Part shown: in pieces, positions 3,601-53,922 of the stretch | How positions within the stretch are numbered: position 1 is the stretch's first letter | How the letters are laid out: each line of letters opens with the position of its first letter | Assembly (NCBI GenBank): GCA_964016885.1 | Contig: OZ024743.1 | Span: 352,222,001 to 352,286,000 of the forward strand | Source of the DNA: Eledone cirrhosa | Taxonomy: Eukaryota | Length of the DNA: 64,000 bases | Reading direction: 5' to 3' | The notes under the pieces: model-generated | Database searches by the model: none | What the model saw: only the letters and a program-made list of their open reading frames with translations | What the model was told of the DNA's origin: nothing | Position numbers and translations under genes: made by a program

Positions 3601-4158
3601 TGGGAAAATATTGCTGTTGATTGTAATAGATGGAGAAAGACTGTATATGAGGGAAAAGTTGCCTTTGAGGCATCTCGAATCGCATACGAGAAAGTAAAGC
3701 GGGATGTGAGGAAGGGCATTGCTGTTGCACTTCCAGACGGCGATGGTCCTCCTATGGTGCTGACATGCAGCGTCTGTGCGAGACTCTGCCTAAGCAAAGC
3801 TGGACTGGAAAGTCATTTTCGCAGTCATAAAGTAAGGCCAGTGGTTGACTATCAGGCTGCTGTTAGAGATGCTACTCATCATGCTTGCCAAGCATGTGGT
3901 AGAGAATGTAAATCAGCAGGAGGGCTCAAACGACATGCAAAAGTACATGAACTCCAACCACAGCCGGGTATTCGCAGTGAATGTTTTGGTTGCCGACTCT
4001 GTGCAAGACATTTTAGATCATTGGCTGGGCTAAAAAGCCACATTCGATCGCAGCGCTGTTAGTTGCTATCGTGTGTGTGTGTGTGTGTGTGTGTAGATAT
4101 GTTTATGTGTGTGCGTGTGTGTGTATATATATATATGTATATTATTATTGTTGTTGTC

Positions 4159-4610: not shown

Positions 4611-4754
4611 TATATATATATATATAATGTAGGAGGTGAGTTTTATTGTAGTACAATAAAGCAATGCAGATATCGGATAAGTAGCACTCTACAGTTTGTA
4701 GGACTGGAGTATAAATAATATATAAGATCAAAAGATTGTTAAAAGAGTTCCATG

Positions 4755-4825
4755 TATTTTATTATGCGCATTTCAAAAACAAATATCATCATGCGATAAC
4801 ATTTGCGTTTTCGTCAGATAAAATA
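4755..4825 (-). ncRNA. Type I hammerhead ribozyme motif, family A (also 32410-32480, 59386-59456)
   Basis: Minus strand: tattttat CTGACGA aaacgcaaatgttatcgcatgatgatatttgttttt GAAA tgcgca TA ataaaata; 8-bp stem I, paired stem II, palindromic stem III ATGCGCAT. Confidence 0.85.
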
Positions 4826-5325
4826 GGGAGACATGATATGAAGGTTAAAAAACACTTGTGAATAGTGCCGTTTTAAATCAACATATGAAACGTAGTATTA
4901 GATTGATGTGTGATATTGGGAAAAAAAAAATTATGGGGGGGGGGCGGGGTTGGAAAGGATGAAAAAAAGGAGGAGATGAGAGTAAAAAGTGGAGGGGAGG
5001 AGTATAATGAGGAAGGATGAGATAGGAGGAGAGATGGGTGATAGAGAGAGAGAGATATCTTTTATAACTGAGAAAAATATATTGTTTTACATAGAGAGGT
5101 TAAAAAACCGTTGGAAGATAATATATAAATTAAAAGAATTTGAAAATTAACGAAGAGAAAAATTTAGAATAATGTTAAATTAAGGTTTGTATATTGGAGG
5201 GTTTAATAATATGGGCGATGAAAAGAAATTGTTAATATGTATTAAGAATAATATTTAAGGGTTTAATAATATGTGCGATGGAAAGAAATTGTTGATATGT
5301 ATTATTAAAAAATGGTACTTCTGAA

Positions 5326-7005
5326 GTGATTGGTTGGTTCAACAAATTGAATAAGAAAAACAAACAAAAATTTATTCAATTTGATATTGCCAGCTACTAT
5401 TCTTCTATTTCGCCCTCACTTCTCAACAATGCTCTATCTTTCGCTTACAAATATTCAGACATCACCACATATGAACTTCACATCATTCTCACCGCACGTA
5501 AAACCATCCTACAGTTCAACAATGAATATTGGACCAGAGCTGATACCTCTAACAACTTTGACATCACAATGGGAGCATCCGATTCATCCCAATTGACAGA
5601 TTTAATTGGTATCTTTATTTTGAACTCTTTGAATCGGAAAATTCCTCAACTTCGCGGTGGAATTTATCGTGACGATGGACTCTTTACTATCTTAAATTGC
5701 AACATAGTTAACCTTAATATTATTAAGAACAATATACGTAATCTCTTTAACCAACATAACTTAAAAATTGAATTTGATAACAGCATCAAACTAGCTAATT
5801 TCTTGGATGTATCTCTTAATCTTGACACTGGCCTATATTACCCTTACCATAAAAACAATGAGAACCTAAATTATGTTAATTTTAAATCTAACCACCCCAC
5901 TAATATTAAGAATGCTATAGATAGTAATATTGGAAAAAGAATATCCAACCTATCTTCTAATAAAAACATCTTTGATGCTAACGCCAATTACTATAATAAC
6001 GCGCTTTCTAAAGCCGGTTATCCTGATAAAATCAAATATAGTAAAGAAACAAATGCTAGAAGATCTTACAGTAGAATAATTAATCATGATCATTCCAATA
6101 ATTTTAATAAAAGACCTAGATACAAAAGCATAATCTGGTATAATGCTCCTTTCTCCATCTCTATTAATAATAATATTCCTAAATTATTCTTTAGTGCCTT
6201 AAATAAATGCTTCCCTCCCTCACATATCTATAGTAAAATATTTAACAAACACACTATAAAATTTTCCTATTCGACCTCCTCCAACATCTCCAACATTATC
6301 TCTAAACACAACAATAAAATACTAAATACTAAATCTCTTCCTTCCAACACTGAATATCATAATAATAGTAATAGTACTCCCGACGTCATTGTTAACTCTA
6401 GGCTAATTTCTGCAAACCCAAATACAACGTCAAACGCAACTTCGTTAAATGTTCTCAATCCCATTCTAAATCAAGAAACTATTATTCCTATCGTAAATAA
6501 CTTCTCCAATCCAATTCCTTCTATAGATAACAGTAGGTCACTTGTTAATAACTCTGTTAATTTCTCTAATCGCAATTGTAATTGCCCTGTTAAAAATAAA
6601 TGTCCTCTCAACAACCATTGTCTTGAAAAAAACTTAATCTACGAATGTAAAGTTATAACTGACACCAATTCCTTTACCTATTTTGGCTCCACTTCCACCT
6701 CCTTTAAAGCTCGTCTTTATAATCATCATTCGTCTTTTAAATACCAACTTAAAAGAACCAACACGGCACTCTCAGAACTCATATGGTGCTTGAAAGACAA
6801 ACATATTAACTATAACATCTCTTGGAAGAAGGTTTGTTCTGCTTTTCCATACTTGAATAATTCTCTATCCAAGACATGCAATCTCTGTTTATGTGAAAAA
6901 TTTACCATTATATCTAATTTAGATCCTATAATAAATAGACGCACTGACTTGTTTTCGCTCTGCTTTCATAAATTCCACAGAACATTCCATAAAGTATACA
7001 GCTAA
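5326..7005 (+). CDS. PLE reverse transcriptase (N-terminally truncated) + GIY-YIG endonuclease, Naiad-like
   Basis: FDIASYYSSI, MGASDS, IYRDDGL, NFLDVSL, SNHP, WYNAPFS; CxCx5Cx5C linker CNCPVKNKCPLNNHC; LIYEC...TYFG...FKARLYNH; CNLCLCEK; INRR...CFH. No true start codon. Confidence 0.9.
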   Translation: MIGWFNKLNKKNKQKFIQFDIASYYSSISPSLLNNALSFAYKYSDITTYELHIILTARKTILQFNNEYWTRADTSNNFDITMGASDSSQLTDLIGIFILNSLNRKIPQLRGGIYRDDGLFTILNCNIVNLNIIKNNIRNLFNQHNLKIEFDNSIKLANFLDVSLNLDTGLYYPYHKNNENLNYVNFKSNHPTNIKNAIDSNIGKRISNLSSNKNIFDANANYYNNALSKAGYPDKIKYSKETNARRSYSRIINHDHSNNFNKRPRYKSIIWYNAPFSISINNNIPKLFFSALNKCFPPSHIYSKIFNKHTIKFSYSTSSNISNIISKHNNKILNTKSLPSNTEYHNNSNSTPDVIVNSRLISANPNTTSNATSLNVLNPILNQETIIPIVNNFSNPIPSIDNSRSLVNNSVNFSNRNCNCPVKNKCPLNNHCLEKNLIYECKVITDTNSFTYFGSTSTSFKARLYNHHSSFKYQLKRTNTALSELIWCLKDKHINYNISWKKVCSAFPYLNNSLSKTCNLCLCEKFTIISNLDPIINRRTDLFSLCFHKFHRTFHKVYS

Positions 7006-7383
7006 TATCTAATACTTTACCAATTTAAAATCCTTTTCTCAAAGGCACATATATATATATATACATATATATTTCTTTAAAAATATACCCATCTTTCTAC
7101 CTTATTTCAATGTTATTTATTATACATTATATAATACTAGTTACTCATTCTATATCACTCCTATTTATCACTTCCCTTTCTTTCTTTTTTCCTTTTTTCT
7201 TTTCTTTTTTCTTTTAATTTCTAACCTCTAATCTGTACCTTTTCTTCCTAGATACTTCTCAATTCTCATTATTACCCACCACAATATATCCTTACTTTAT
7301 ATCACCTTGAAAAATCCTTCGTAAACATAAACATTTTTTTGACGTTAGATTATTCATCATCAATTCATTATTTTTTTCTCGGA

Positions 7384-7560
7384 TTGGCAGTATCGGTAGA
7401 GGGTCGGACGCCATGCTTTCCAGCATAGTTACGTCCTTTTACGATCTGAGTTCAAATCCCGCCGAGGTTGACTTTGCCTTTCATCCTTACGGGGTCGATA
7501 AAATAAAGTACCAGTAATGCACTGGATAATTGCTGGCCTTGTGCCTAAAGTAGAAACAAT
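7384..7560 (+). mobile_element. tRNA-derived SINE in the PLE 3' UTR (also ~35041-35217, ~62024-62200)
   Basis: A-box-like tggcagtatcggtag, B-box gagttcaaatccc, body gttgactttgcctttcatccttacggggtcgataaaataaagtaccag repeated at other sites in the window. Confidence 0.8.
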
Positions 7561-7838
7561 TATTTTTTTCTCCCTTTCATGCTCAACTAACTTATACATA
7601 TTACACTTATTCATCCACTCTACTTCTTTTCACAATATATCCTTAATTACATTACTATTGTTATATTTTTATATTTTTTAATAATACATATCAACAATTT
7701 CTTTCCATCGCACATATTATTAAACCCTTAAATATTATTCTTAATACATATTAACAATTTCTTTTCTTCGTACATATTATTAAACCCTCCAATATACAAA
7801 CCTTAATTTAACATTATTCTAAATTTTTCTCTGCGTTA

Positions 7839-9900
7839 TATAAGGTATGTATATACGTTCAACAATCTGGCAGGAAGTTATACGTTGCTGACGATAGCTA
7901 ACAAGCTTGAAACTAGTACAGCGTTCCTTTGTCAGTGTTGAACAAACGAGCAACGGTGGTTGCTAGACACTACGGCTTAATACAGGATGTTTGTTTACAA
8001 ACACACCGAGCGTTATAATAAATGTGCGGTGACTCCATACGTGCATATAAATATATGTGCATGTATGTATATATATATATACATACTACTGTACGTCTGT
8101 ATACATATATGTATGTACGTGTACATACTTATATTTAAGTAAAAGCCGTACTAAGAATGGGAAATGAAATTTCGTTTCATTTTTTCCGTTTATCGTTTTC
8201 CCACACTTAGTACGGCTTTTACTTAAATATAAGTATGTACACGTACATACATATATGTATACAGAGGTACAGTAGTATGTATATATATATATACATACAT
8301 GCACACATATATATATGTACGTGTGGATTCACCGAACATTTATTATAATGCTCAGCGTGTTTGTAAACAAAGATCACGTATTAAGCCGTAGTGTCTAGTA
8401 ACCATCGTTGCTCGTTTGTTCAACACTGACAAAGTAACGCTGTACTAGTTTCAAGCTTATTAGCTAACGTCAGCAACGTATACCCACCTGCCAGATTGTT
8501 GAACGTATATACTTACCTTATGCATATTAACGGGTGAGTAGCCCAATTTGCATATCGAGTGGGTTAATCGGCCGGGTGCAACGAAAACGATAAACGGAAA
8601 AAATGAAACGATATTTCATTTCCCACTCTTAGTACGGCTGTTACTTAAATATAAGAACGTACACGTACATACATATATGTATACAGACGTACAGTAGTAT
8701 GTATATATATATACATACATGCACATATATATATATTCACGTATAGATTCACCGAACATTTATCATAATGCTCGGTGTGTTTGTAAACAAACATCCCGTA
8801 TTAAGCCGTAGTGTTTAGCAACCACCGATGCTCGTTTGTTAAACACTGACAAAGGAACGCTGTACTAGTTTCAAGCTTGTTAGCTATCGTCAGCAACGTA
8901 TACCTTCCTGCCAGATTGTTGAACGTATATATTTACCTTATGTATATTAACGGCTGAGTAGGCCAATTTGCATATCGAGTGGGTTAATCGGGCGGGTGCA
9001 CCGAAAACAATAAGCGGAAAAAATGAAACGATATTTCATTTCCCACTCTTAGTACGGCTGTTACTTAAATATAAGTACGTAAACGTACATACATATATGT
9101 ATACAGACGTACAGTAGTATGTATGTATATATACATACATGCACACATATATATATGCACGTATGGATTCACCGAACATTTATTATAATGCTGGGTGTGT
9201 TTGTAAACAAACATCCCGTGTTAAGCCGTAGTGTCTAGCAACCACCGTTGCTCGTTTGTTCAACACTGACAAAGGAACGCTGTACTAGTTTCAAGCTTGT
9301 TAGCTATCGTCAGCAACGTATACCTTCCTGCCAGATTGTTGAACGTATATACTTACCTTATGCATATTAACGGCTGAGTAGCCCCATTTGCATATCGAGT
9401 GGGTTAATCGGCCGGGTGCAGCGAAAACGATAAACGGAAAAAATGAAACGATATTTCATTTCCTGCTCTTAGTACGGCTGTTACTTAAATATAAGTATGT
9501 ACACGTACATACATATATGTATACAGACGTACAGTAGTATGTATATATATATACATACATGCACATATATATATATGCACGTATGGATTAACCGAACATT
9601 TATCATAATGCTCGGTGTGTTTGTAAACAAACATCCCGTATTAAGCCGTAGTGTCTAGCAACCACCGTTGCTCGTTTGTTCAACACTGACAAAGGAACGC
9701 TGTACTAGTTTCAAGCTTGTTAGCTATCGTCAGCAACGTATACCTTCCTGCCAGATTGTTGAACGTATATACATACCTTATGTATATTAACGGCTGAGTA
9801 GGCCAATTTGCATATCGAGTGGGTTAATCAGGCGGGTGCACTGAAAACGATAAACGGAAAAAATGAAACGATATTTCATTTCCCACTCTTAGTACGGCTG
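7839..9900 (-). repeat. 420-bp HHR-bearing tandem array (4 monomers + partial) with an inverted partial monomer at 7839-8198
   Basis: cttagtacggc recurs near 8207, 8628, 9048, 9468, 9888 (period 420); HHRs on minus at 8437-8479, 8857-8899, 9277-9319, 9697-9739 and on plus at 7882-7924. Confidence 0.93.
7882..7924 (+). ncRNA. Minimal type I hammerhead ribozyme motif, family B
   Basis: acgttg CTGACGA t agct aaca agct t GAAA ctag TA cagcgt; 6-bp stem I, 4-bp stem II, palindromic ACTAGT stem III, GUA cleavage triplet. Confidence 0.85.
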
Positions 9901-11562
9901 CTACTCTATCTGTTCCGTCTCTATATATATCTCTTACTCTTTCGCTTTGCACTCCTCCCCTTCAATACCACCTCTCCCCCTCTCTATATATTTGTTACTC
10001 TATCGCTGCACGCTCCTCTCCTTCAATATATCAATTACACACGCTTTACACTCCTTTATCCCCAGCGCCCCTATATATACACCCCCCCTCTCCCGCATCT
10101 ATATTTTAATGTAGCGTTGCACCGTGAATATATGTGTCTATATATATATACATATATATTGTATATACACATTCATGTATGTGTATACACACTCATGTAT
10201 GTATATACACTGGTTTTATGTGTGTATTGTAAATTTGTACTGTTAAAACACGAAACTAACATTCGATTGACACTTTGATTACCTGTACAGGCAATAGTTA
10301 TTAGAATGCTGTTGAAGTGTGTATATATTTTAGGGGGACATCCTGTATATACACACATTATATATAATACAATAAACAGATAAATACACACATATATATA
10401 TGAGCTTATTTAATTATAAATATTGTGAATTTTTAACTCAGTTCAATTATATATATAAATGGCTTCTACAGGACTAGAACTGTTTCATTCGAAAGAAATC
10501 ATCATAATATTGAGAGGGGGGACTAGATAAAATATTTCAAATCAAATGTGTATAAGTTATAAGTTAAAATGTATAAATAGAGACGATAGTGGAGGTATAT
10601 CTGTTTAGTGGAACAGTAGACGATAGAATTAAATACAGACGAGAATCTCCCTTTAATGAAATAGCAGACGATAGAATTAAGGCAATTTAAATTTTAAGCA
10701 TTTGCATTTTTGCCTTTCATCGTTACGGGGTCGATAAAATAAAGTACCAGTAATACACTGTCACTAGACGACTTTCAAATTGAATTGTTGGTTCCATTTC
10801 TTTAGTATTTTCAATTGTAGTTATCTACTTAAAAAGCGTTACACGGTTAGAGACATAATTCGTAAGTTATATCTTCCCTATTAAACCATTGCATTATTTC
10901 GCCTACAATAGAACAAAAATGAAATGTTCTTTAAAGAAACAGGAATATAACTTTATAAAAAAAAAAGTTGCATCCGCTTCTTTTATCATTGATAATTTTT
11001 TCGTTTTAATATTAATTGTTTTTTGTAGTTGTTTATATTAAAAATCTTACTGTAATATTTACTTAAACGAAGGCAAACATCTAAACTTATAGATTAATCT
11101 TCTGCGAAGGACTAGATAAATCTCTCTCTCTCTCCCTCTCTCCCTCTCTCTCTCTATATATATATATATAAACGAAGAATGATAAAATTTCAAGCAAAGA
11201 GTTTAATTAGGTATATTTTGTAATATTATTAACTAATTATTATAATTAACGCGCATATTTTGCTATCCTCAAACACGTTTACACATGGCATGAAATATAA
11301 CTAATCCGAGATGGCTAGGTTTCATCTTCTAACTGGATATACGAAATCCATTATGTCTTGACAACAACATGAGGTAACATTATGTTATTCACAGACACAC
11401 TTTGTACACTGTTCCATATCAGAATGTATTTCCTTCGTCACATTCACAAACAGTATTGAAAATATGTTCTTCGGCAAATAAAAATGTTTTGTTCATAATA
11501 TTTCAACTAGCGATTGCTCTACTCCACGCACGACCACCATAAATTAATGACCAGCTCAACAC

Positions 11563-15144: not shown

Positions 15145-17220
15145 TTTATATCGTGATGACTGTCTTCTTCTTTCCACTAATCTTAGCCTATCAGCAATTG
15201 AAAAAAATAAAAAACTTATTAGAACTTTCCTCAAAGACTATTACAATCTCACTATTACATTTGAAAACACCAGTAAAATAGTCAATTTCCTAGATATAAC
15301 TTTAGACTTGTCTACGGGAATCTACCAACCTTACCATAAACCTGACCAAAATTTACATTACATACACTCACAATCCAGTCACCCTAGATCTATCCTTAAA
15401 AACCTAGCATATAATATCTCACTCAGAATCTTTAACCTTTCATCTTAAACAAATTAGTCTATATACCTTGCACCAATAATACTTCAAACATACAACCCAA
15501 TATTACCAACAAACACCAAATGAAAAACCCACACCTAAATGCTACTCATACTACACCCAAAAATACCAACCTAAAACTTAATTTCTCTACCTCTTCTCAC
15601 ATAAAATATAATGACTTTCAAAAAACCATTCATCCTAATAATACTCCAATATATGTTAACAACATTACTAACAAAATTCCTAATAATCAGACTAAAACAC
15701 CTAAATCAGTCAATCTAACTAAACCTATATATAATAAATTCACTAATAGTAACTCTCTTAGTAAACATCCTGATACATCGTATAAATATTTTTAAAAAAT
15801 ATCGAAACCGTAATAGACGGGTTACTTGGTATAATGCTCCATTTAATCTACGAATTAAAGATAATATCCTTAAAAAGTTTTTTACTATCCTAGAGAAAAA
15901 CTTCCCGCCAAACCATAAATACCATCAAATTTTAAATAGATCAACTGCCAAATTTTCATACTCCACTACCAAAAATATACAACAAAATATAAGTGCGTAC
16001 AACACATATAAATGTTAAAAAAAATCAAATATACCACTAACACATCAAACCAACCATAATACTAAAATAAACCGCAACAAACCACCATCTCCTTCACCTG
16101 TAACAAGTCGAGTAACTCCCCTGATATAATATTCACGAGTGGTTGTAACTGTAGAATCAAAAGAAATTGCCCATTAAAAGGAAATTGTCTTATTAATAAC
16201 ATAGTCTATAAATGTAAAATTAGCACTAAGGACTCCACTTATTCATATATAGGAGCTATGTCTAACCAATTTAAAGTAACATAGTTTTAAAAATGCTGCA
16301 TTAGCTAATACAACATCCTTGGCTGAAACAATTAATAATTATAGAAAGAAGAATATCGATTACAACCTGACCTGGAGTGTGCTCAAAAGGGCCACCCCTT
16401 ATCAAAATAACAGATACGAGTGTAGACTATGCTCCCAGGAACTTTTTGAAATCATGAACTCTAAGGATATCCTATTAAATAAGCGACAGGAATTAATTAT
16501 ATCTTGTAATCATAGAATTAGAAGAACCTTCAAATATTATAAACCTAATTAATATACACCTTACACTTATATTTTAAATATTATTATAATTAGTTTTTTA
16601 ATTTAGTTAACCTATAATTAGTACTTTACTACAGAGAACTTCATAATTTTATTTCCCTCTTACAGCTCTCTTTTCCGAAAAATTATTACCTAAAAGTATA
16701 CCTATAAATTAATTTAATTTGCTGTTATGAATCTAGATTCCTTGTAGTTTATATAAGATTGGTATTTCTCACTACTACCCCTATCCCTATAACATCAAAT
16801 TTTCGTGTACCTTTCACTGGCTTGATCTCTTTTCATCCCCAAAGTATTCTTTTCATTCAAAGTATTCTTTTCATTCAAAACATAAGTCTGCACTCCTCTA
16901 CCCCTAAATTAAATTTCTACTACTACTATTCTATCAACTTGACCTCTAACTACTTTTCTATTGGTCAATTCAAAACCTGTTCCCAAGCAGACCTTTTATA
17001 TTAAATCTTTGTTGGTTTTTGTTTCAATAAACAAATTTCATCATTTCTGAAGACAGCATATATATGTGAAGGTATGTATATTTCCTCTGATAGTTTGTAA
17101 TATTTTTACATAGATCTATATGATATACATACCAACACACATATACATCCTAGAAACGATCGTAAAATGATGAATTTTTTAATATAAGGAACTTGTTCTT
17201 TGTTTTTATTTCATTGCTTT
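15141..17220 (+). mobile_element. Second, decayed Naiad-like PLE with HHR in its 3' pLTR (copy 2 ~43223-45300)
   Basis: Manual translation: LYRDDCLL (~15146), VNFLDITLDLSTGIYQPYHKP...SSHPRSILKN (~15281), RRVTWYNAPFN, GCNCRIKRNCPLKGNC...IVYKC...SYIG (~16141-16255); ORF 16319-16552 CRLCSQE...LLNKRQEL...CNH; stops and frameshifts. Confidence 0.88.
17037..17174 (+). ncRNA. Type I hammerhead motif with ~100-nt stem II, family D (copy 2 45119-45256)
   Basis: ttcatcattt CTGAAGA [long hairpin including ggtatgtatat/atatacatacc] GAAA cgatcg TA aaatgatgaa; 10-bp stem I, palindromic ACGATCGT. Confidence 0.85.
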
Positions 17221-17314
17221 TATTAATTTATATATATATATATAGTTATGTAATATCCACACATGCACACACGCACATATACATACACATACACATATAC
17301 ACACACATACACAT

Positions 17315-17373
<59 letters not shown>

Positions 17374-18282: not shown

Positions 18283-18455
18283 CTCTCTAAGGCGGGTAAA
18301 ATTCCCGAGATCCATGGACGAGTTCTCTTCAGCGGTCTCTGTCCATCATTATCGCTGCCATGTCCTGCGTCTCCACCAGACCAGTGTCTGTCCTTAGGGC
18401 ATCAACATACGTTAACCTTGGTCTTCCTCTTCTAGTGTGTCCATGTAGGGGCATA
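18283..18455 (-). mobile_element. 3' fragment of a different RTE-like LINE (copy 2 ~45989-46161)
   Basis: PLHGHTRRGRPRLTYVDALRTDTG...MMDRDR resembles the RTE C-terminal RGRPxxT(W/Y)xD...DR motif. Confidence 0.65.
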
Positions 18456-18461
18456 TATATA

Positions 18462-18990
18462 TATATATGTGTAGAAGTTATATTTAACTTGTTGGGATAC
18501 AACAAGCAACAAATTATTGGAGTAAAAATACAATATATTAACAAATGGAAACTATATTTATAAAACCATATTTATTTCATTATACATATTTCAGGGATAT
18601 CATATTAACAATATGTTATGCCTTCCTCAGACAAAATACAATATAGACAGTTTTATAGATAAATAGATTTGACATACCGTTCAACATCGACTTGTATTTG
18701 AAAAAGTTGATTTAGCAGATCAACTTTTTCAAATACAAGTCGATGTTGAACGGTATGTCAAATCTATTTATCTATAAAACTGTCTATATTGTATTTTGTC
18801 TGAGGAAGGCATAACATATTGTTAATATGATATCCCTAAAATATGTATAATGAAATAAATATGGTTTTATAAATATAGTTTCCATTTATTTAATATCGTA
18901 AATATACTCCAAATACTTGTTGAGTGCTTTTATATCAGTTATAAATATTTACTAGTTGTAACCCAACAATTTAAATATAACTTTCCATAT
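18462..18990. repeat. Fold-back, ~250-bp arms, with HHR family F in each arm (copy 2 ~46168-46696)
   Basis: Centre ~18714 (aaaagttgatttagcagatcaactttt). Minus HHR 18573-18638: tattttgt CTGAGGA aggcataacatattgttaatatgatatccct GAAA tatgta TA atgaaata; the plus copy 18792-18857 has GAAA changed to AAAA. Confidence 0.88.
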
Positions 18991-19145
18991 ATATATATAT
19001 ATATATATATGTAGATAAATCTACCAAGAGTTTACGGTAGTGTCCAATCCGTATGAAGAACTCAATGTAATCCGGATATCATGGAAAGAAGAGATGCAAT
19101 GAAAAATCACTTTCGGTGAAAGATAAACGGAATACAGAGTCAAGA

Positions 19146-19575
19146 TAAAATATAAAAAAAATAATGAATAAAACAATGAAACAGTTCCTTATATTAAACA
19201 AAAAAAGTTCATTATTTAACGATCGTTTCTGGGATATATATGTGTTAGAATTGGCATGTATATTTAACAGATCTATGTACAAAATTATACAAAATTATAC
19301 AAACTATCAAAATTAAATATACATACCAACTCATATATATGCCGTCTTCAGAAATAAAATTATAATAATGATTATTTCTGAAGACGGCATATATATGAGT
19401 TGGTATGTATATTTAATTTTGATAGTTTGTATAATTTTGTATAATTTTGTACATAGATCTGTTAAATATACATGCCAATTCTAACACATATATATCCCAG
19501 AAACGATCGTTAAATAATGAACTTTTTTTGTTTAATATAAGGAACTGTTTCATTGTTTTATTCATTATTTTTTAA

Positions 19576-19584
<9 letters not shown>
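19146..19584. repeat. Fold-back, ~210-bp arms, with family-D-related HHR in each arm (copy 2 ~46852-47290)
   Basis: Centre ~19363; plus HHR 19371-19518 attattt CTGAAGA cggcatatatatg...catatatatccca GAAA cgatcg TT aaataat; minus copy 19211-19356. Confidence 0.88.
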
Positions 19585-20331: not shown

Positions 20332-20397
<66 letters not shown>

Positions 20398-20402
<5 letters not shown>

Positions 20403-22111
20403 TGAAACAAAATGAAAACGAAATTTCATTTCTCACTCTTAGTATGGCACTTACTTAAATGTAAGTATGCATGTATACGTACATACATATATGTATACAG
20501 ACGTACAGTAGCATGCACATATATATATATATATACATATATATATACATATGCATACAGGTACACATACATATATGCACGTATCAGTTTAGCGGCGCTA
20601 ACATCGCTTTGTTCGTTTGTAAACAAACTGAACAGCCTGAATTTATGCCATACGGTGTTAAGGCAACCACGTCACCTTTTTGTTCAACACTGACACAGGA
20701 ACGATGTACTAGTTTCAAGCTTGTTAGCTATCATCAGCACCGTTTACCCATCTGCCAGATAGTTGAACGTTCGAAAGTATATACTTTCCTTATGAAAATT
20801 AACGGCTGAGCAGCCTAATTTGCATATTGAGTGAGTTAAATCGGTCAGGCATACCGAAAACGATAAATTGAAACAAAATGAAAACGAAATTTCATTTCTC
20901 ACTCTTAGTATGGCACTTACTTAAATGTAAGTATGCATGTATACGTACATACATATATGTATACAGACGTACAGTAGCATGCACATATATATATATATAT
21001 ACATATATATATACATATGCATACAGGTACACATACATATATGCACGTATCAGTTTAGCGGCGCTAACGTCGCTTTGTTCGTTTGTAAACAAACTGAACA
21101 GCCTGAATTTATGCCATACGGTGTTAAGGCAACCACGTCACCTTTTTGTTCAACACTGACACAGGAACGATGTACTAGTTTCAAGCTTGTTAGCTATCAT
21201 CAGCACCGTTTACCCATCTGCCAGATAGTTGAACGTTCGAAAGTATATACTTTCCTTATGAAAATTAACGGCTGAGCAGCCTAATTTGCATATTGAGTGA
21301 GTTAAATCGGTCAGGCATACCGAAAACGATAAATTGAAACAAAATGAAAACGAAATTTCATTTCTCACTCTTAGTATGGCACTTACTTAAATGTAAGTAT
21401 GCATGTATACGTACATACATATATGTATACAGACGTACAGTAGCATGCACATATATATATATATATACATATATATATACATATGCATACAGGTACACAT
21501 ACATATATGCACGTATCAGTTTAGCGGCGCTAACGTCGCTTTGTTCGTTTGTAAACAAACTGAACAGCCTGAATTTATGCCATACGGTGTTAAGGCAACC
21601 ACGTCACCTTTTTGTTCAACACTGACACAGGAACGATGTACTAGTTTCAAGCTTGTTAGCTATCATCAGCACCGTTTACCCATCTGCCAGATAGTTGAAC
21701 GTTCGAAAGTATATACTTTCCTTATGAAAATTAACGGCTGAGCAGCCTAATTTGCATATTGAGTGAGTTAAATCGGTCAGGCATACCGAAAACGATAAAT
21801 TGAAACAAAATGAAAACGAAATTTCATTTCTCACTCTTAGTATGGCACTTACTTAAATGTAAGTATGCATGTATACGTACATACATATATGTATACAGAC
21901 GTACAGTAGCATGCACATATATATATATATATACATTCAGGCTGTTCAGTTTGTTTACAAACGAACAAAGCGACGTTAGCGCCGCTAAACTGATACGTGC
22001 ATATATGTATGTGTACCTGTATGCATATGTATATATATATGTATATATATATATATATGTGCATGCTACTGTACGTCTGTATACATATATGTATGTACGT
22101 ATACATGCATA

Positions 22112-22113
<2 letters not shown>
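20398..22113 (-). repeat. 466-bp HHR-bearing tandem array (3 monomers + partial, then inverted partial 21936-22113); absent from unit 2
   Basis: ORF echoes at 20412, 20878, 21344, 21810 give period 466; HHRs on minus at 20700-20744, 21166-21210, 21632-21676; (TA)n on both sides; homologous to the 420-bp monomer. Confidence 0.93.
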
Positions 22114-22160
<47 letters not shown>

Positions 22161-24626: not shown

Positions 24627-26927
24627 CATAGGTTCTCAACCCATTTAGGCCAAACGCCCCCTTTTGTCCCTCGAAATCACGAAACGCCCCTACCCTATTT
24701 TTACATTTTTCAATATACTACTGATTTTGATATCTGTAGATTATTAAAAAATTGATTAACAATATTCCAAAGATACCATTGCAGGCAGCTGAGAGTATAA
24801 ATACATTCCTTGAAAGGAAATATATAAATTTCAAGAAAAGGAACATAAATGTTCTTTTTTATGAATAAGGACCAGTTGAATTTGTTATTTCCCACCAGGC
24901 GATACCAACTGTTTTGAAAATTTATACAAGAGCAACTCTATCCAAAGAGTGCTCTTATCTGGAAGAAAGTGGCAATTATATCATTTCAAAGCTTTCCAGT
25001 TTTCCCTTTAATGAAACAGACAGAATAAATGTTGATATCTAACTTGATGTCCTCTCTGCTTTGTGAGCTTAGAGACCACGGAAGAGGGTTTTCATGACCA
25101 CGCGGGAGGGTGTATTTATTAGTAAATGGTAAAATATAAACAACAAATGAGTAAGTGAATTGTAGTAGATGGTTTCCAGTCCAGTCAGACTGCAACTACA
25201 AATAAAAAAAAATGTTAGTTTGCTTTGTAACAATAGCATATCTAAGTTTTCGGATAAATCAACTTACTTTAACTTTGACCTCATTTCAATAGGACCCTTG
25301 AACTTCATGGAGTCTAGCTAACTCTTTGACGTCAGTCTGGATTTTCGTAAGATGTAGCCGGAGATCTCCACATGTAATTACACTGTAGTGGTTGCGAGCC
25401 TTACTGTGCAGTCTGGAAACAGCACCAAACCTCCTCTTGACTAAGTATGAGCTTGGAAAAGGCAGAGCAAATCTCTTAGCCTCTGCATGTAGGTGTGGAA
25501 ATCGACGCTGAATTTCCTCTTGCATCCAAAAAAGGGGTTCACCTATTTTGGGAAATCTAATTTTGATCATGTCATCTGCTTGAAGTTCAATGAATTCTTC
25601 CTGAAATATAACGTCCAAATCATCGACGTTAACTATAAAGGGATCTGCTACCCACATTGGGATGTCCATCGGCAAAAGGTCGACAAACCGTTCTCTCATG
25701 TTGTCTTGTAGCGCACGGTGGTGAGTGGTATAAATTTGGAGTTGATCATCGCTTACAATGTTTTGAACATTGGCGACACTAGGAAAATTATAGAATTCCC
25801 GTCAACAAAGATTCCTTTCGATGACATTCAATTTGGCCAGGAATGTTTTCAAGCAAGGTGATCTTCTCCTGCAAAGCCAAAATGACGCTGTTGCATTTGT
25901 CGAAGATGTCGGTGAGGTAGGCGCAGTTTTGCCTCATATCGAGGGTTTTCTTGTACAGTTTTGTGTTGCATCCTCGCAGAAACTCAATCATAGAGTCAAA
26001 CAGTTCAAAGAAGTGAGTAAGGCACTTGCCATTTGAAAGCCACCTCACTTCATTATGAAGGAGCAACTTGACAAATTCTTCGTCATTATCTTGGCACAGT
26101 TGCCGGAAAATTCGTTCATTGAGGGAATGCCGTTTGATAAAATTGATGACATCAATGGCCACCAGCAAGTTTCTTCACAGCCAAGTGTTGTCGATGAATG
26201 ACACAATGAACAACAAATACAGATAGACTTTCTCTCTTCAGAAGAGTGACGAAACCCTTATGTTGGCCGACCATTGCTCTTGCGTCGTCCTAGATGTATG
26301 TATTACCTGCCTGTGTGTGGTAGGTAGTCATGGATGTATGTATTACCTGTTTATGTATTGCATGTGGTCCTAGATGTATGTATTACCTGATTATGTGTTG
26401 TATGTGGTCCTAGATGTTTGTATTACCTGATTATGTGTTGTATGTGGTCCTAGATGTTTGTATTACCTGCTTATGTGTTGTATGTGGTCCTAAATGTATG
26501 TATTACTTGCCTGTGTGTTGTATATGGTTCTAGATGTGTGTGCTACCTCCTTATGTGTTGCATGTGGTCCTAGATGTGTGTATTACCGACTTATGTGTTG
26601 TATGTGGTCCTCGATGTGTATATTACCTGCTTATGTATTGTATATGGTCCTAGATGTGTGTATTATCTGATTATGTGTTGTATGTTGTCCTAGATGTGTG
26701 TGCTACCGGCTTCTGTGTTTTTTTTTGTTTTTTTTATTTGCAATATTATTTATACAATAGGTTAAAATAAATCTACATAGTGTTAACTTGTTACGGTTGA
26801 GTTAATAATTTCAAACATGAAATACATTGTTATCAGTGAAGGAAAGGCTGCGGTTGAAGTTTCATTGACCCAGATGACTGTGGGTTTTTCCATTGTTAGG
26901 ATCTCAATTGCTGGTTAATGTCTAAAC
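24627..26927 (-). mobile_element. Decayed hAT transposon (Charlie/Buster-like), one terminus deleted
   Basis: Transposase fragments HCVIHRQHLA (~26180-26212), LLHNEVRWLS (ORF 25788-26168), LPFPSSYLV...GDLRL (ORF 25286-25699); terminus cataggttctcaa. Confidence 0.88.
26288..26718. repeat. 40-bp minisatellite (~10.5 copies) inside the hAT element (copy 2 52376-52806)
   Basis: Unit tcctagatgtatgtattacctgcttatgtgttgtatgtgg, period 40. Confidence 0.92.
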
Positions 26928-34662: not shown

Positions 34663-35495
34663 TATCTAATACTTTACCAATTTAAAATCCTTTTCTCAAA
34701 GGCACATATATATATATATACATATATATTTCTTTAAAAATATACCCATCTTTCTACCTTATTTCAATGTTATTTATTATACATTATATAATACTAGTTA
34801 CTCATTCTATATCACTCCTATTTATCACTTCCCTTTCTTTCTTTTTTCCTTTTTTCTTTTCTTTTTTCTTTTAATTTCTAACCTCTAATCTGTACCTTTT
34901 CTTCCTAGATACTTCTCAATTCTCATTATTACCCACCACAATATATCCTTACTTTATATCACCTTGAAAAATCCTTCGTAAACATAAACATTTTTTTGAC
35001 GTTAGATTATTCATCATCAATTCATTATTTTTTTCTCGGATTGGCAGTATCGGTAGAGGGTCGGACGCCATGCTTTCCAGCATAGTTACGTCCTTTTACG
35101 ATCTGAGTTCAAATCCCGCCGAGGTTGACTTTGCCTTTCATCCTTACGGGGTCGATAAAATAAAGTACCAGTAATGCACTGGATAATTGCTGGCCTTGTG
35201 CCTAAAGTAGAAACAATTATTTTTTTCTCCCTTTCATGCTCAACTAACTTATACATATTACACTTATTCATCCACTCTACTTCTTTTCACAATATATCCT
35301 TAATTACATTACTATTGTTATATTTTTATATTTTTTAATAATACATATCAACAATTTCTTTCCATCGCACATATTATTAAACCCTTAAATATTATTCTTA
35401 ATACATATTAACAATTTCTTTTCTTCGTACATATTATTAAACCCTCCAATATACAAACCTTAATTTAACATTATTCTAAATTTTTCTCTGCGTTA

Positions 35496-37976
35496 TATAA
35501 GGTATGTATATACGTTCAACAATCTGGCAGGAAGTTATACGTTGCTGACGATAGCTAACAAGCTTGAAACTAGTACAGCGTTCCTTTGTCAGTGTTGAAC
35601 AAACGAGCAACGGTGGTTGCTAGACACTACGGCTTAATACAGGATGTTTGTTTACAAACACACCGAGCGTTATAATAAATGTGCGGTGACTCCATACGTG
35701 CATATAAATATATGTGCATGTATGTATATATATATATACATACTACTGTACGTCTGTATACATATATGTATGTACGTGTACATACTTATATTTAAGTAAA
35801 AGCCGTACTAAGAATGGGAAATGAAATTTCGTTTCATTTTTTCCGTTTATCGTTTTCCCACACTTAGTACGGCTTTTACTTAAATATAAGTATGTACACG
35901 TACATACATATATGTATACAGAGGTACAGTAGTATGTATATATATATATACATACATGCACACATATATATATGTACGTGTGGATTCACCGAACATTTAT
36001 TATAATGCTCAGCGTGTTTGTAAACAAAGATCACGTATTAAGCCGTAGTGTCTAGTAACCATCGTTGCTCGTTTGTTCAACACTGACAAAGTAACGCTGT
36101 ACTAGTTTCAAGCTTATTAGCTAACGTCAGCAACGTATACCCACCTGCCAGATTGTTGAACGTATATACTTACCTTATGCATATTAACGGCTGAGTAGCC
36201 CAATTTGCATATCGAGTGGGTTAATCGGCCGGGTGCACTGAAAACGATAAACGGAAAAGATGAAACGAAATTTCATTTCCCACTCTTAGTACGGCTGTTA
36301 CTTAAATATAAGTATGTACAGGTACATACATATATGTATACAGACGTACAGTAGTATGTATATATATATACATACATGCACACATATATATATGCACGTA
36401 TGGATTTACCGAACATTTATTATAATGCTCGGTGTGTTTGTAAACAAACATCCCGTATTAAGCCGTAGTGTCTAGCAACCACCGTTGCTCGTTTGTTCAA
36501 CACTGACAAAGGAACGCTGTACTAGTTTCAAGCTTGTTAGCTATCGTCAGCAACGTATACCTTCCTACCAGATTGTTGAACGTATATATTACCGTATGCC
36601 TATTAACGGGTGAGTAGCCCAATTTGCATATCGAGTGGGTTAATCGGCCGGGTGCAACGAAAACGATAAACGGAAAAAATGAAACGATATTTCATTTCCC
36701 ACTCTTAGTACGGCTGTTACTTAAATATAAGAACGTACACGTACATACATATATGTATACAGACGTACAGTAGTATGTATATATATATACATACATGCAC
36801 ATATATATATATTCACGTATAGATTCACCGAACATTTATCATAATGCTCGGTGTGTTTGTAAACAAACATCCCGTATTAAGCCGTAGTGTTTAGCAACCA
36901 CCGATGCTCGTTTGTTAAACACTGACAAAGGAACGCTGTACTAGTTTCAAGCTTGTTAGCTATCGTCAGCAACGTATACCTTCCTGCCAGATTGTTGAAC
37001 GTATATATTTACCTTATGTATATTAACGGCTGAGTAGGCCAATTTGCATATCGAGTGGGTTAATCGGGCGGGTGCACCGAAAACAATAAGCGGAAAAAAT
37101 GAAACGATATTTCATTTCCCACTCTTAGTACGGCTGTTACTTAAATATAAGTACGTAAACGTACATACATATATGTATACAGACGTACAGTAGTATGTAT
37201 GTATATATACATACATGCACACATATATATATGCACGTATGGATTCACCGAACATTTATTATAATGCTGGGTGTGTTTGTAAACAAACATCCCGTGTTAA
37301 GCCGTAGTGTCTAGCAACCACCGTTGCTCGTTTGTTCAACACTGACAAAGGAACGCTGTACTAGTTTCAAGCTTGTTAGCTATCGTCAGCAACGTATACC
37401 TTCCTGCCAGATTGTTGAACGTATATACTTACCTTATGCATATTAACGGCTGAGTAGCCCCATTTGCATATCGAGTGGGTTAATCGGCCGGGTGCAGCGA
37501 AAACGATAAACGGAAAAAATGAAACGATATTTCATTTCCTGCTCTTAGTACGGCTGTTACTTAAATATAAGTATGTACACGTACATACATATATGTATAC
37601 AGACGTACAGTAGTATGTATATATATATACATACATGCACATATATATATATGCACGTATGGATTAACCGAACATTTATCATAATGCTCGGTGTGTTTGT
37701 AAACAAACATCCCGTATTAAGCCGTAGTGTCTAGCAACCACCGTTGCTCGTTTGTTCAACACTGACAAAGGAACGCTGTACTAGTTTCAAGCTTGTTAGC
37801 TATCGTCAGCAACGTATACCTTCCTGCCAGATTGTTGAACGTATATACATACCTTATGTATATTAACGGCTGAGTAGGCCAATTTGCATATCGAGTGGGT
37901 TAATCAGGCGGGTGCACTGAAAACGATAAACGGAAAAAATGAAACGATATTTCATTTCCCACTCTTAGTACGGCTG
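35496..37976 (-). repeat. 420-bp HHR-bearing tandem array, copy 2 (5 monomers + inverted partial)
   Basis: One extra monomer (~36277-36695) relative to copy 1. Confidence 0.93.
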
Positions 37977-40900
37977 CTACTCTATCTGTTCCGTCTCTAT
38001 ATATATCTCTTACTCTTTCGCTTTGCACTCCTCCCCTTCAATACCACCTCTCCCCCTCTCTATATATTTGTTACTCTATCGCTGCACGCTCCTCTCCTTC
38101 AATATATCAATTACACACGCTTTACACTCCTTTATCCCCAGCGCCCCTATATATACACCCCCCCTCTCCCGCATCTATATTTTAATGTAGCGTTGCACCG
38201 TGAATATATGTGTCTATATATATATACATATATATTGTATATACACATTCATGTATGTGTATACACACTCATGTATGTATATACACTGGTTTTATGTGTG
38301 TATTGTAAATTTGTACTGTTAAAACACGAAACTAACATTCGATTGACACTTTGATTACCTGTACAGGCAATAGTTATTAGAATGCTGTTGAAGTGTGTAT
38401 ATATTTTAGGGGGACATCCTGTATATACACACATTATATATAATACAATAAACAGATAAATACACACATATATATATGAGCTTATTTAATTATAAATATT
38501 GTGAATTTTTAACTCAGTTCAATTATATATATAAATGGCTTCTACAGGACTAGAACTGTTTCATTCGAAAGAAATCATCATAATATTGAGAGGGGGGACT
38601 AGATAAAATATTTCAAATCAAATGTGTATAAGTTATAAGTTAAAATGTATAAATAGAGACGATAGTGGAGGTATATCTGTTTAGTGGAACAGTAGACGAT
38701 AGAATTAAATACAGACGAGAATCTCCCTTTAATGAAATAGCAGACGATAGAATTAAGGCAATTTAAATTTTAAGCATTTGCATTTTTGCCTTTCATCGTT
38801 ACGGGGTCGATAAAATAAAGTACCAGTAATACACTGTCACTAGACGACTTTCAAATTGAATTGTTGGTTCCATTTCTTTAGTATTTTCAATTGTAGTTAT
38901 CTACTTAAAAAGCGTTACACGGTTAGAGACATAATTCGTAAGTTATATCTTCCCTATTAAACCATTGCATTATTTCGCCTACAATAGAACAAAAATGAAA
39001 TGTTCTTTAAAGAAACAGGAATATAACTTTATAAAAAAAAAAGTTGCATCCGCTTCTTTTATCATTGATAATTTTTTCGTTTTAATATTAATTGTTTTTT
39101 GTAGTTGTTTATATTAAAAATCTTACTGTAATATTTACTTAAACGAAGGCAAACATCTAAACTTATAGATTAATCTTCTGCGAAGGACTAGATAAATCTC
39201 TCTCTCTCTCCCTCTCTCCCTCTCTCTCTCTATATATATATATATAAACGAAGAATGATAAAATTTCAAGCAAAGAGTTTAATTAGGTATATTTTGTAAT
39301 ATTATTAACTAATTATTATAATTAACGCGCATATTTTGCTATCCTCAAACACGTTTACACATGGCATGAAATATAACTAATCCGAGATGGCTAGGTTTCA
39401 TCTTCTAACTGGATATACGAAATCCATTATGTCTTGACAACAACATGAGGTAACATTATGTTATTCACAGACACACTTTGTACACTGTTCCATATCAGAA
39501 TGTATTTCCTTCGTCACATTCACAAACAGTATTGAAAATATGTTCTTCGGCAAATAAAAATGTTTTGTTCATAATATTTCAACTAGCGATTGCTCTACTC
39601 CACGCACGACCACCATAAATTAATGACCAGCTCAACACAAGTATTGGTAGAGCGTCAGACACCATGCTTTGCAGTATTGTTATGGTCCTTTGCATTCTAA
39701 GTTCAAATCCTGCCGAGGTTAACTTCGACTTTCATACTTACTAATTCGATAAAATAAAGTACCAGTAATGGACTGCCGTAATGGATTTGTGCCGAAAAAT
39801 AGAAACACTATTAATGTGCAATAAAAGCAAAATATAACGACATTGCTCAATTATTTTATCTAATGTTGTAATAACACAAGGAAATGTTGTTTGTGTATTT
39901 TTTTTTATATTTGCTCATAGGCTTTTACAATTTCGCTCAGCCAACAACTATTAAAAAGTGAGTTGCTTAAGATAACAATTTAATCACAAATTGTTGCTAT
40001 CTTTTAATACACTCCAACAAGTCATCAAATTATGTACAATAAAAACAAATCTTATTAATTTGCTCAGGGAATATAAAGAAAATGTATATACACTGATAAT
40101 TGCAATTGTATGTAAATATTTTGTTTATGTATTGTATATTTTATGTTTTCTATTATGTATAATATATTGATTTAATATTGATTGTTTTTTGTAGTTGTTT
40201 ATATTAAAAGTCTGAAAATATTTTTATACATCTTACACTAATATTTATAAGATAATTTATAATAACAATTACATAATCTAATTACATTACAACGATAATT
40301 TATTATTAATATATATCCTGTTTAACTAGAGTTATTACAAGCGTTGCCTTAAAAAAATATTAAACTAGACATGAAAAATGCGCAAGCTCAAAAGTGCCAC
40401 AGAATGTTATAATAAACCTTCAAAAGTGTGGGACTAGAGTTGTTGCTAAAAAATATTGTAATCATTATATATCGTACATTCTGTGGCATCCTTTATAAAA
40501 ATAGCTTAAACCAACGAAGCCTTTATTTTTACGCTATTTCACTTAGTTAATTCTTAGAGTGTAACATATAAAAATAAATACATCTATGTTTAATGTAATA
40601 ACAGCTATAAATAATTACGTAATATTATTATCATATACTCATAGTAACAAAATAATTGTGTTGAAACTTAATATGATGCTTATATGAACGATCAAATCTA
40701 TAATGATAATTTCTTAAATATACTAATAGTAAAATAATTTAGTTATCTATTGTTACATTTTCATAGAACTATAATATTAACAATCGTATTGCATTATCAA
40801 ATTTTTATCACTACAAACTTTCATATTGGAATTACCTTAAGCCACTTATTATTACTTCGCTTTCGTACTTTTACAGCTGTAGATATTGCGCTGTATCTTA

Positions 40901-48023: not shown

Positions 48024-48117
<94 letters not shown>

Positions 48118-48182
48118 TAAACAAATAATGAATAAACAATTCCTTATATTAAACAAAAAAAGTTCATTATGATGAATATATA

Positions 48183-48258
<76 letters not shown>

Positions 48259-49596
48259 ATATATACATATAAATGTATATATATATACATATACACACAC
48301 ACATATATATATAAGAAAATACATAAATATTATCTAATATATATTTGTGAAATGGGCGGTGGCTGAAATTCAAATGTGCACGGTTAAATGGTAGTAGACG
48401 TGGTCGGACGGACGTGAAAATTTACACACCTATATAAAAAGTACCAAGGAAGCAAATAGACGAGGTGTCAAATCTCTAACTTGAAAAATGTGGTCCCTGG
48501 GGCCCCAAAACTATCGCGTTCGGTGAGTTATTTCCCCCTGTTCTAATACTTTTGTCTAAAAAAACATATCAAAGACAACGTTATTTCGCTGTTAATAAAC
48601 TTTTGGCTACTACAGTACGTTTCATTTTCATTTTTAAAATATAATTGCTCTATATTAAATTTAAATAATTCTATAACGATCATACAGTACTGTTTTATAA
48701 AATCGATTCTGCAGTAGAATTTTACGAAATGCCAAATCGAAAAAGTAACTGTTTTCTAACAAAAGAAATAAAACCCTTACATTGCTAACCCCCTGTTCTA
48801 ATACTGGGGTTAGTTATTTCCCCCTCTTCTAATAAATATCTAATGCTGACCAGGGCAATCAAAGTGTAAACTATCATACAGTACCGTTTTATGAAATCAA
48901 TTCTGCAGTACCATTTTACGAAATGCCAAACCGAAAACAGTCACTGTTTTCCATCAAAAGAAATAAAACCCTTAAATTGCGAAGAAGGGAGTCATGTTCT
49001 CAAGTACGTTTTTTCAGATATCATTTTCATTTTATTTCTAATATATGTTAACCACAACTAACAGTAACTAGTATTTTTCAATTCATTGTCTTATTTAAAA
49101 TAACATATCAAAGACCACGTTATTTCGCTGTTAATAAACTTTTGGCTACTACAAGCTTCCATGGTTACGGAGAAAATCGATGAAACAGGAATTTCCCATT
49201 CAAATTGAACTGAGAGTAATCTGTGAACGCAGAAGTAAATATTTCGAGAAACGTTGCAACCAAACGAAAACAGGAAGACGATATTTTGGTTCGTGAAGAC
49301 GTTCCCTGGCAAGGAACGGGAAAAAAGCGAGGATAATACATCGTTATGTGGAGCGTGAAGAACAATTTCATACAAAGACAAGTTTATGGTATAAATGGAG
49401 TCGTTAGGCTAATATTCTATTTAAAATAACAGAATGGTTTCCAGCCCCGGATTTTAAGAATGATGTAAATAAAATTGAAAACGAAAATGACAGAGGTTAT
49501 TAAAATAGTAAAAGTAAATAGTGAAGATTTAGGCCAGTACATACGTATGCCCCGACGAATATACACATACATACGCACACACAAATACACACACAC

Positions 49597-53290: not shown

Positions 53291-53492
53291 ATATAGATAT
53301 ATATATATATAAAATTCAAATTTTGAAAAGAGAAGAAAACGGACAAATGAACTAGATATATCTCACTGTCCCCCACCACCACAATAATGTCTACACTCTC
53401 TCCCCACCATCACATGTCATTACCCTATCTAGACTAAAGTCATCGACCTGTTGTCAAACTCTCTACTCTGTGTTGAATGTGTATATATATGT

Positions 53493-53922
53493 ATGTAGGA
53501 GGTGAGTTTTATTGTAGTACAATAAAGCAATGCAGATATCGGATAAGAAGCACTCTACTGTTTGTAGGACTGGAGTATACATAATATATAAGATCAAAAG
53601 ATGGTTAAATGAGTGCCATGTATTTTATTATGCGCATTTCAAAAACAAATATCATCATGCAATAACATTTGTGTTTTCATCAGATAAAATAGGAAGACAT
53701 GATATGAAGGTTAAAAACACTTGTGGATAGTGCAGTTTTAAATCAACATATCAATATATGTTGATTTAAAACTGCACTATTCACAAGTGTTTTTAACCTT
53801 CATATCATGTCTTCCTATTTTATCTGATGAAAACACAAATGTTATTGCATGATGATATTTGTTTTTGAAATGCGCATAATAAAATACATGGAACTCATTT
53901 AACCATCTTTTGATCTTATATA
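53493..53922. repeat. Fold-back of family-A pLTR with two HHRs (minus 53621-53691, plus 53816-53886); mostly deleted in unit 1
   Basis: Centre ~53755; plus arm tattttat CTGATGA aaacacaaatgttattgcatgatgatatttgttttt GAAA tgcgca TA ataaaata; homologous to 4627-4890. Confidence 0.88.

Follow-up and report, generated by a model that had tools for sequence, protein, structure and literature searches.

The 420-bp and 466-bp tandem repeats of Eledone cirrhosa are non-LTR retrozymes, a class that is already known, and the conserved fold of their RNA and the two sites at which their insertions end are new details. We consider it probable that these repeats are protein-less hammerhead retroelements, and that their conserved branched RNA is bound by a Penelope-like reverse transcriptase (RT)/endonuclease that starts copying at two fixed internal sites on nicked (TA)n strands. 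The fold is likely to be what tells a Penelope-type enzyme where to begin.

The arrays and their ribozymes

The window, which is the whole stretch of 64,000 nucleotides that was analyzed, lies in a genome of about 3.0 Gb and is a tandem segmental duplication with units of about 27 kb. These units (window 1-64000; contig C4, 352.19-352.30 Mb) are about 99% identical and vary in 420-bp copy number and in having or lacking the 466-bp array. The 466-bp array occupies 20397-21936, with 3.3 copies at a period of 466 and one difference between units. Arrays of the 420-bp family are found at 8197-9905, 35854-37981 and 63221-64000 (one adjoining the window extends over more than 13 kb), and the two families share 77-78% identity. 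An inverted arm that the sequence-only reading overlooked carries the 466-bp element to 22115. The main features are as follows.

20397..21936, minus strand: sense arm of the 466-bp insertion (3.3 retrozyme units), with its 3′ end at the distal ("long") site and 5′-truncated at 21936
21931..22115, plus strand: second arm of this insertion, inverted and 5′-truncated, whose end lies within the TACTTA hairpin at the proximal ("short") site
20335..20399: (TA)n target, left side; (TA)n also lies to the right of 22115
48027..48313: corresponding site in the next 27-kb unit, with (TA)n, no 466-bp array and a different insert of about 70 bp
7837..9905: 420-bp family array, minus strand at 8197-9905 and plus strand at 7837-8200
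21167..21209, minus strand: type I hammerhead with stem I ACGGTG/CATCGT, core CUGAUGA, stem II AGC/GCU and a UAACAA loop
20701..20743 and 21633..21675, minus strand: further hammerhead copies with the same motif

Paralogs of the array at 7837-9905 occupy 35494-37981 and 62632-64000. Within 48027-48313, the insert of about 70 bp resembles the end of a foldback element at 19145-19584; this foldback and two others (18453-19004 and 17040-17349) have hammerhead-like cores and long stem II regions, and probably represent the pLTR ends of further Penelope families. The window also contains a frameshifted RTE-like LINE with C-terminal zinc fingers (669-4062), a SINE-like repeat of about 170 bp (in the group 669-4062, 7389-7558, 25286-26174 and 26287-26719) and, in the same group, a 40-bp minisatellite and fragments that we take to resemble hAT-type transposase (no Pfam match).

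The repeat units have GC contents of 0.36 and 0.38. Their longest ATG frame, on the ribozyme strand, is 48 aa, an antisense frame of 112 aa probably crosses a microsatellite, and the open reading frames listed for the 466-bp array include none for an RT with a GIY-YIG endonuclease. In both families every unit contains, on its minus strand, a single type I hammerhead, and all three full junctions of the 466-bp array have the core, stems I-III and a GUA site. Across the families of the window the core reads CUGAYGA, with a short stem II capped by UAACAA. For the hammerhead at 21167-21209 the predicted cut falls after GUA, between 21173 and 21172, and stem III is the palindrome ACUAGU; a palindromic helix III allows hammerheads to cleave as dimers (PMC4209133). 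No Rfam match in the hammerhead units reaches the gathering score, the HH9 matches being weak at 18.5 bits against a gathering score of 52. Matches by e-value to miRNA models were rejected as microsatellite hairpins.

Genome-wide, the ribozyme pattern of family A has 24,478 exact matches (control, 0) and a generic minimal hammerhead pattern has 61,672 (control, 295), with arrays of short units spread over many contigs. About 240 loci were fetched, a sample biased toward contig C1 and toward copies whose core is intact or has a single mutation. They gave 289 distinct ribozyme contexts of family A or E, of which 259 fell into 11 clusters of at least 3 loci and 30 were left out. Family E, summarized from 39 contexts, is older and 67-76% identical. 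Two further families, which came from the generic pattern, are young, with a TAACAA loop and a palindromic stem III as in family A.

Family B (L154, L160 and L161, at C1:5.738-5.751 Mb): units of 466-467 bp, in an array of at least 28 units
Family C (L158 and L132-L145): units of 310-311 bp

Family B is homologous to A (alignment score 327 versus 152±13), with many helix strands that differ. Homology of family C to A is unsupported by its alignment score (44 versus 36±9), the two are not alignable, and the alignment of B with C is weak (50 versus 31±8). In addition, dozens of single-copy hammerheads with a TAATAA loop have unrelated flanks and an often broken stem I (L195, L196, L205, L209, L227-L235 and L301-L323; 122 pattern matches, including copies of families C and E). 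They are probably relics of an ancient family, picked out by the pattern itself, and some two dozen hammerheads present as single copies, with the same loop, unrelated flanks and a mostly broken stem I, were excluded.

Covariation in the predicted monomer fold

Predicted folding of the 466-bp unit places the ribozyme within a larger branched structure, the parts of which are listed here.

21148..21234, minus strand: extended stem I (CCU/GGG, UGUCAG/CUGGCA and GUUGAAC/GUUCAAC), predicted to join both ends of the cleaved monomer
20908..21119, minus strand: long-range helix P3, in which 21111-21119 pairs with 20908-20916, closing a multiloop
20918..20933, minus strand: TACTTA/TAAGTA hairpin, holding the proximal insertion end, a putative site of RT initiation
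20829..20904, minus strand: three-way junction P8, with GAGTGAG/CTCACTC, an AU-rich hairpin, a pyrimidine-rich linker and a TCGGT/ACCGA hairpin
20941..21050, minus strand: long imperfect hairpin arm with the (UA)/(CA)/(UG) microsatellite, excluded from the covariation statistics

The P3 multiloop is predicted to contain two hairpins, the microsatellite arm and the TACTTA hairpin, and the distal insertion end (about 20863) sits in the pyrimidine-rich linker of P8. Predicted pairing takes in 65-69% of the bases of the units. Relative to 30 dinucleotide shuffles, circular MFE has a z of -7.9 for the 466-bp unit and of -7.2 and -6.6 for two 420-bp units, weakening to -5.4 (466) and -4.0 (420) when the microsatellite arm is removed. 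Folding energy is inconsistent as a test of strand, the 420-bp antisense strand scoring better without the microsatellite (-5.1 versus -4.0).

The sequence-only reading had aligned the two families and named paired changes between them, and every one of these is present in the units of the window: the flip of a U-G pair to G-U in stem I (acgTtg/caGcgt to acgGtg/caTcgt), a core that differs only at N7 (CTGACGA versus CTGATGA), two compensatory pairs in P3 (taCggcT/AgccGta to taTggcA/TgccAta) and one in P8 (cCcactc/gagtgGg to cTcactc/gagtgAg). The exact gagtggg/cccactc sequences occur in 6 of the 8 full 420-bp units of the window. The helices that it described as kept are likewise present, although single copies carry private breaks and tactta/taagta is exact in only 5 of the 8 full 420-bp units.

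Covariation was assessed on column-majority sequences aligned by sequence alone, with the microsatellite removed and S10 dropped as a near-duplicate of S1. Pairs were predicted from one sequence per run, changes were counted on a tree, and the null consisted of 200 reshuffles of the substitutions of each branch, a test made for this analysis as an analogue of R-scape. With S7 as predictor, the 91 non-ribozyme pairs experienced 11 pair-keeping and 5 pair-breaking double changes, and 23 pair-keeping and 25 pair-breaking single changes; the null gave 2.3±1.3 compensatory doubles, with a maximum of 6 in 200. The fraction of changes that keep the pair is 0.56, versus 0.42 in the null (maximum 0.52). 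Predictors S3, S0, S1 and E gave 9, 10, 8 and 11 compensatory doubles, with null means of 1.8-2.1 and maxima of 5-8. The strictest subset, which omits extended stem I and hairpins of uncertain register, retains 7, 6, 6, 6 and 4, where the null for paired columns reached at most 5, 5, 5, 4 and 5, so that the 4 doubles of the E-based prediction do not exceed their null maximum of 5. Many pair-breaking events trace to a single hairpin whose register remained shifted by one base. Paired columns accumulated 0.45 substitutions per column and unpaired columns 0.69, and the excess of G·U over A·C is modest (15:5 versus 26:16 in the null).

Dead copies behave differently. Their private mutations (11,703 cells) comprise doubles that kept the pair in 4 cases and broke it in 4, a total of 8 versus 2.4 expected, and singles that kept it in 86 and broke it in 234; overall, 94 of 336 changes keep the pair, and G·U (68) equals A·C (68). 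Private mutation rates in genomic copies are 1.44% in paired and 1.70% in unpaired columns. Because dead copies have no pair-keeping bias, the preservation of pairs belongs to the master lineages and not to DNA repair of copies.

When the named structure is laid on 26 natural copies, 94.6% of cells are paired, and 16 of the 77 pairs change on both sides, 5 of them in the ribozyme and 11 outside. Shuffles gave 9.5±1.5, a figure that ignores relatedness, and slid controls were 32-40% paired. The clearest signal is in P3, where 4 of 7 pairs changed on both sides, followed by P8 with 2 of 7, and the TACTTA and AAATGAAA helices have no double changes in this alignment. One old natural copy has a different predicted fold at P3/P8. 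RNAalifold, which had been suggested as a check, retained 40 pairs on the same noisy alignment, 12 of them with double changes, but it omitted P8 and several hairpins.

Family B offers a comparison at greater distance. Folded independently, it takes the same level-5 shape as the 466-bp unit, which none of 60 shuffles reached, and 52 of 122 pairs are common to the two within 2 nt, versus 2.9. Family C appears by eye to be a reduced version of the layout, without the AU hairpin. Since the tree-aware test, the lack of pair-keeping in dead copies and the similar folding of a distant family agree, selection on the predicted branched fold beyond the ribozyme is supported. The sequence-only reading, which had proposed such selection, went too far in extending it to the whole monomer: tactta/taagta, aaatgaaa/tttcattt and gtttg/caaac are near-invariant within family A and show little covariation, the 420-bp units no longer have the 3′ strand of a hairpin (GAAAGT/ACTTTC) that the 466-bp units and the other subfamilies retain, and the RNAalifold consensus is confined to its 40 pairs. 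Its contrast with an ordinary DNA satellite was correct, and the class to which the repeat belongs was already known.

Insertion ends and Penelope-like elements

The 3′ ends of insertions were mapped from 218 terminal ribozyme contexts, 27 of which continued or met a locus edge, leaving 191 resolved ends. Of these, 172 lie at one of two sites (89 distal and 83 proximal) in windows that span 4-9% of the monomer, and 156 of the 172 run into TA. Where a locus has arms on both strands, the two arms end at different sites, one long and one short, in 28 of 33 cases, and the sole short-short locus mixes two families. The 5′ ends, unlike the fixed 3′ ends, are scattered, with 97 of 167 truncated arms abutting an inverted retrozyme arm; no non-retrozyme upstream sequence is shared among the 39 unclassified 5′ flanks, except in one pair within a locus. 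This two-arm anatomy has no LTR-like framing. The insertion in the window conforms to the pattern, with its distal end at 20397, its proximal end at 22115 and (TA)n on both flanks.

Both fixed ends differ from the ribozyme cut, and the template must therefore have been read through the cut site, either as a circle or as an uncut multimer. The sites are equivalent in the predicted folds of families A, B and C, which have tails of about 60, 70 and 26 nt, respectively; lengths of 30-40 bp have been described for Penelope. Both lie at AU-rich motifs (CTTAT and TTTAT), and TA microhomology makes the exact ends uncertain by a few bases. Several young arrays have locus-specific variants common to all of their units, which fits rolling-circle copying and also a homogeneous donor array.

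The window carries a Penelope-like element of an abundant family (60,114 candidates).

4627..7838: 5′-truncated Penelope-like element, with an inverted 3′ end (4627-5313), an open frame (5296-7005, 569 aa) and a 3′ UTR

A hammerhead of its own, with a long stem II, lies near 4817 on the minus strand, in the inverted 3′ end. We take the frame to be Penelope from its RT and GIY-YIG-like motifs and from the pLTR and tail anatomy; Pfam gave no match for the truncated frame at 5296-7005. A solo copy at 53482-53931 consists of two inverted arms, one of which carries a tail of about 95 nt. In a count by eye, the 3′ ends of this Penelope family use two sites in all 19 readable cases among 22 rows. These sites are about 42 and 137 nt past the element's own ribozyme cut, and the short one has CTTATAT in common with the retrozyme end motif.

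Penelope sequence is joined directly to 420-bp sequence in the window, where the plus arm at 7837-8200 adjoins the Penelope 3′ UTR, and at loci L326 and L334. In the chimera at L326, a Penelope arm at its short site meets a 420-bp arm at its long site without intervening TA. Few arms are chimeric in this way (3 of 167, including two paralogs), all of them involve the 420-bp family, and they could alternatively have arisen by nested insertion followed by deletion; plain nesting occurs too, as in the insertion into Penelope DNA at L108. The fusion of the Penelope 3′ UTR with 420-bp sequence has two different junctions in the paralogous 27-kb units (7838 and 62632; L247, C4:351.94 Mb), and the fused 420-bp arms there meet 3′ to 3′ at non-canonical positions. 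In L215/L327 (4472-5548) a retrozyme distal end directly adjoins RT sequence from another Penelope family, which has 37-41% identity to the protein of the window.

Local scores of 23 and 27, versus 27 for shuffles, show no similarity in sequence between the retrozyme and the single Penelope pLTR that was examined. No autonomous partner with a homologous pLTR was found, the other Penelope families being seen as fragments. At the Penelope distal site, a three-way junction is predicted with an AU hairpin, a pyrimidine linker that holds the site and a small hairpin, with pair probabilities in context of 0.56, 0.93 and 0.36. The same local shape is predicted for families A, B and E, and family C has no AU hairpin; in the predicted junction of A, the putative distal start lies in the linker about 5-6 nt before the small hairpin. 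This likeness is a lead, a two-hairpin junction being a common shape and the match having no null. We offer only tentatively the idea that retrozyme RNA imitates the element at which the Penelope RT initiates, by its shape and not by its sequence, and that a second start, used by the partner subunit of a dimeric RT, is set by the P3 multiloop.

Proposed mobilization by a Penelope-type enzyme

Published metazoan non-LTR retrozymes have short tandem units, a type I hammerhead in each and a GC content below 45-50% (PMC7229834; bioRxiv 10.64898/2026.07.22.740005), and like the repeats described here they encode no protein, have a self-paired predicted RNA and co-occur with Penelope elements. They form expressed circles with self-paired MFE structures, and Penelope has been proposed as their mobilizer (PMC7229834). 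The 466-bp unit slightly exceeds one published range of 150-450 bp (PMC7229834) and falls within that of 51-972 bp for Xenopus, where 24 of 57 retrozyme families are homologous to transposable elements, mostly PLEs, including pLTR homology, and 1 of 9 tested dimers cleaved in vitro (bioRxiv 10.64898/2026.07.22.740005). The portions of these papers covered here present single MFE pictures and pLTR homology, and a covarying multi-helix architecture, fixed ends, inverted arms and chimeras do not appear in them; for the repeats of Eledone, in contrast, no sequence homology was found to the one pLTR examined. The open-access literature, searched in its main texts, yielded nothing on retrozyme fold covariation, retrozyme tails or cephalopod retrozymes.

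Resemblance to Penelope itself extends to the order of parts, with a hammerhead upstream of two RT starts (PMC11167929; bioRxiv 2021.04.23.441226), a tail on one arm, an inverted 5′-truncated copy and AT-rich or (TA)n targets. Penelope is described with an inverted truncated copy, a one-sided tail and a (TA)n bias (bioRxiv 2021.04.23.441226). For the Poseidon element PAc, which provides the only in vitro system, the tail lies between two internal RT starts, the protein is a predicted dimer, ribozyme cleavage is unneeded and the start is an AC-rich stem-loop inside the ORF; the portions of that report covered here describe internal initiation without a defined recognition structure (PMC11167929). 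Unlike Penelope, the retrozyme has no ORF, and its template would be a tandem or circular monomer.

We propose that retrozyme RNA is expressed, cleaved and circular. Arrays would be transcribed, and the transcripts would cut themselves, probably in dimeric form by way of the palindromic stem III, before circularizing. The enzyme would then start at the two internal sites onto both nicked (TA)n strands and run around the circle, or along an uncut multimer, to produce near-identical tandem units, with variable 5′ truncation joining the two arms. Selection acting on the few master RNAs that are copied may have preserved the helices on which display of the ribozyme, the ligation junction and the start sites depends. 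As a separate observation, runs X4 and X5 each have one contig of 470-486 nt, near monomer length, that matches the 466-bp unit (window 20863-21328) with 0-1 differences and corresponds to the youngest subfamily; run X1 has 3,018 versus the single contig in X4 and X5, with a variant cloud only in X1. These contigs carry no weight in the argument above.

It is possible, but on balance unlikely, that the fold is selected for general RNA fitness, such as circle stability, ribozyme folding or end ligation, and that RT starts are set by short motifs together with TA pairing. The AU-rich motifs at both ends, with their TA microhomology, and the CTTATAT of the Penelope short end are consistent with such a scheme, as are a short-end helix that is invariant rather than covarying, the presence of both ends in family C without the AU hairpin, and the general prediction that retrozyme circles are highly self-paired (PMC7229834). 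However, the TA-rich arm has far more homology to the target and yet the ends avoid it, their positions are structurally equivalent in A, B and C, and general stability would require no common helix order in A and B.

Very little probability attaches to compensation at the level of DNA, whether by template switching or conversion between inverted arms or because the selected structure is single-stranded cDNA. Foldbacks fill the region, strand asymmetry is weak and dead copies have a small excess of doubles, but the proportion of dead-copy changes that keep the pair and their equal numbers of G·U and A·C speak against it, as does the fact that each compensation concerns one pair, in helices with 70-200 nt between their strands; moreover, read on the ribozyme strand, stem I alternates among G·U, U·G and U-A. 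That the repeat is an ordinary DNA satellite with a chance ribozyme, or an element moved by a LINE, is scarcely credible. Some arrays are indeed long and locally amplified, and the RTE-like LINE lies in the window, yet end mapping largely refutes this reading: the copies are scattered in short arrays whose 3′ ends are fixed and whose 5′ ends vary, with inverted arms of which one bears a tail, all hallmarks of Penelope (bioRxiv 2021.04.23.441226).

Mobilization of a protein-less RNA by the enzyme of a partner, which we favor here, also invites comparison with other selfish elements. SINEs are non-coding RNAs that borrow the RT of LINEs through a recognized RNA structure. They have the 3′-end sequence of their partner, and priming occurs at the RNA end. 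Unlike that arrangement, priming in the retrozymes of Eledone appears to be internal, and any resemblance to the partner, if real, is in shape only.

Animal retrozymes and Penelope have so far been linked by co-occurrence and pLTR homology. The insertion ends described here are genomic evidence of a Penelope mechanism acting on retrozymes, and the covarying fold names specific helices and start positions that can be mutated in an assay of established format. Should the mimicry be real, a compact RNA module would direct target-primed, internal and possibly rolling-circle reverse transcription, which would bear on the evolution of RTs near telomerase and on tools for RNA-templated gene insertion. 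In that case, this RNA of 12 helices would be a natural, evolution-mapped template for a telomerase-related class of RT.
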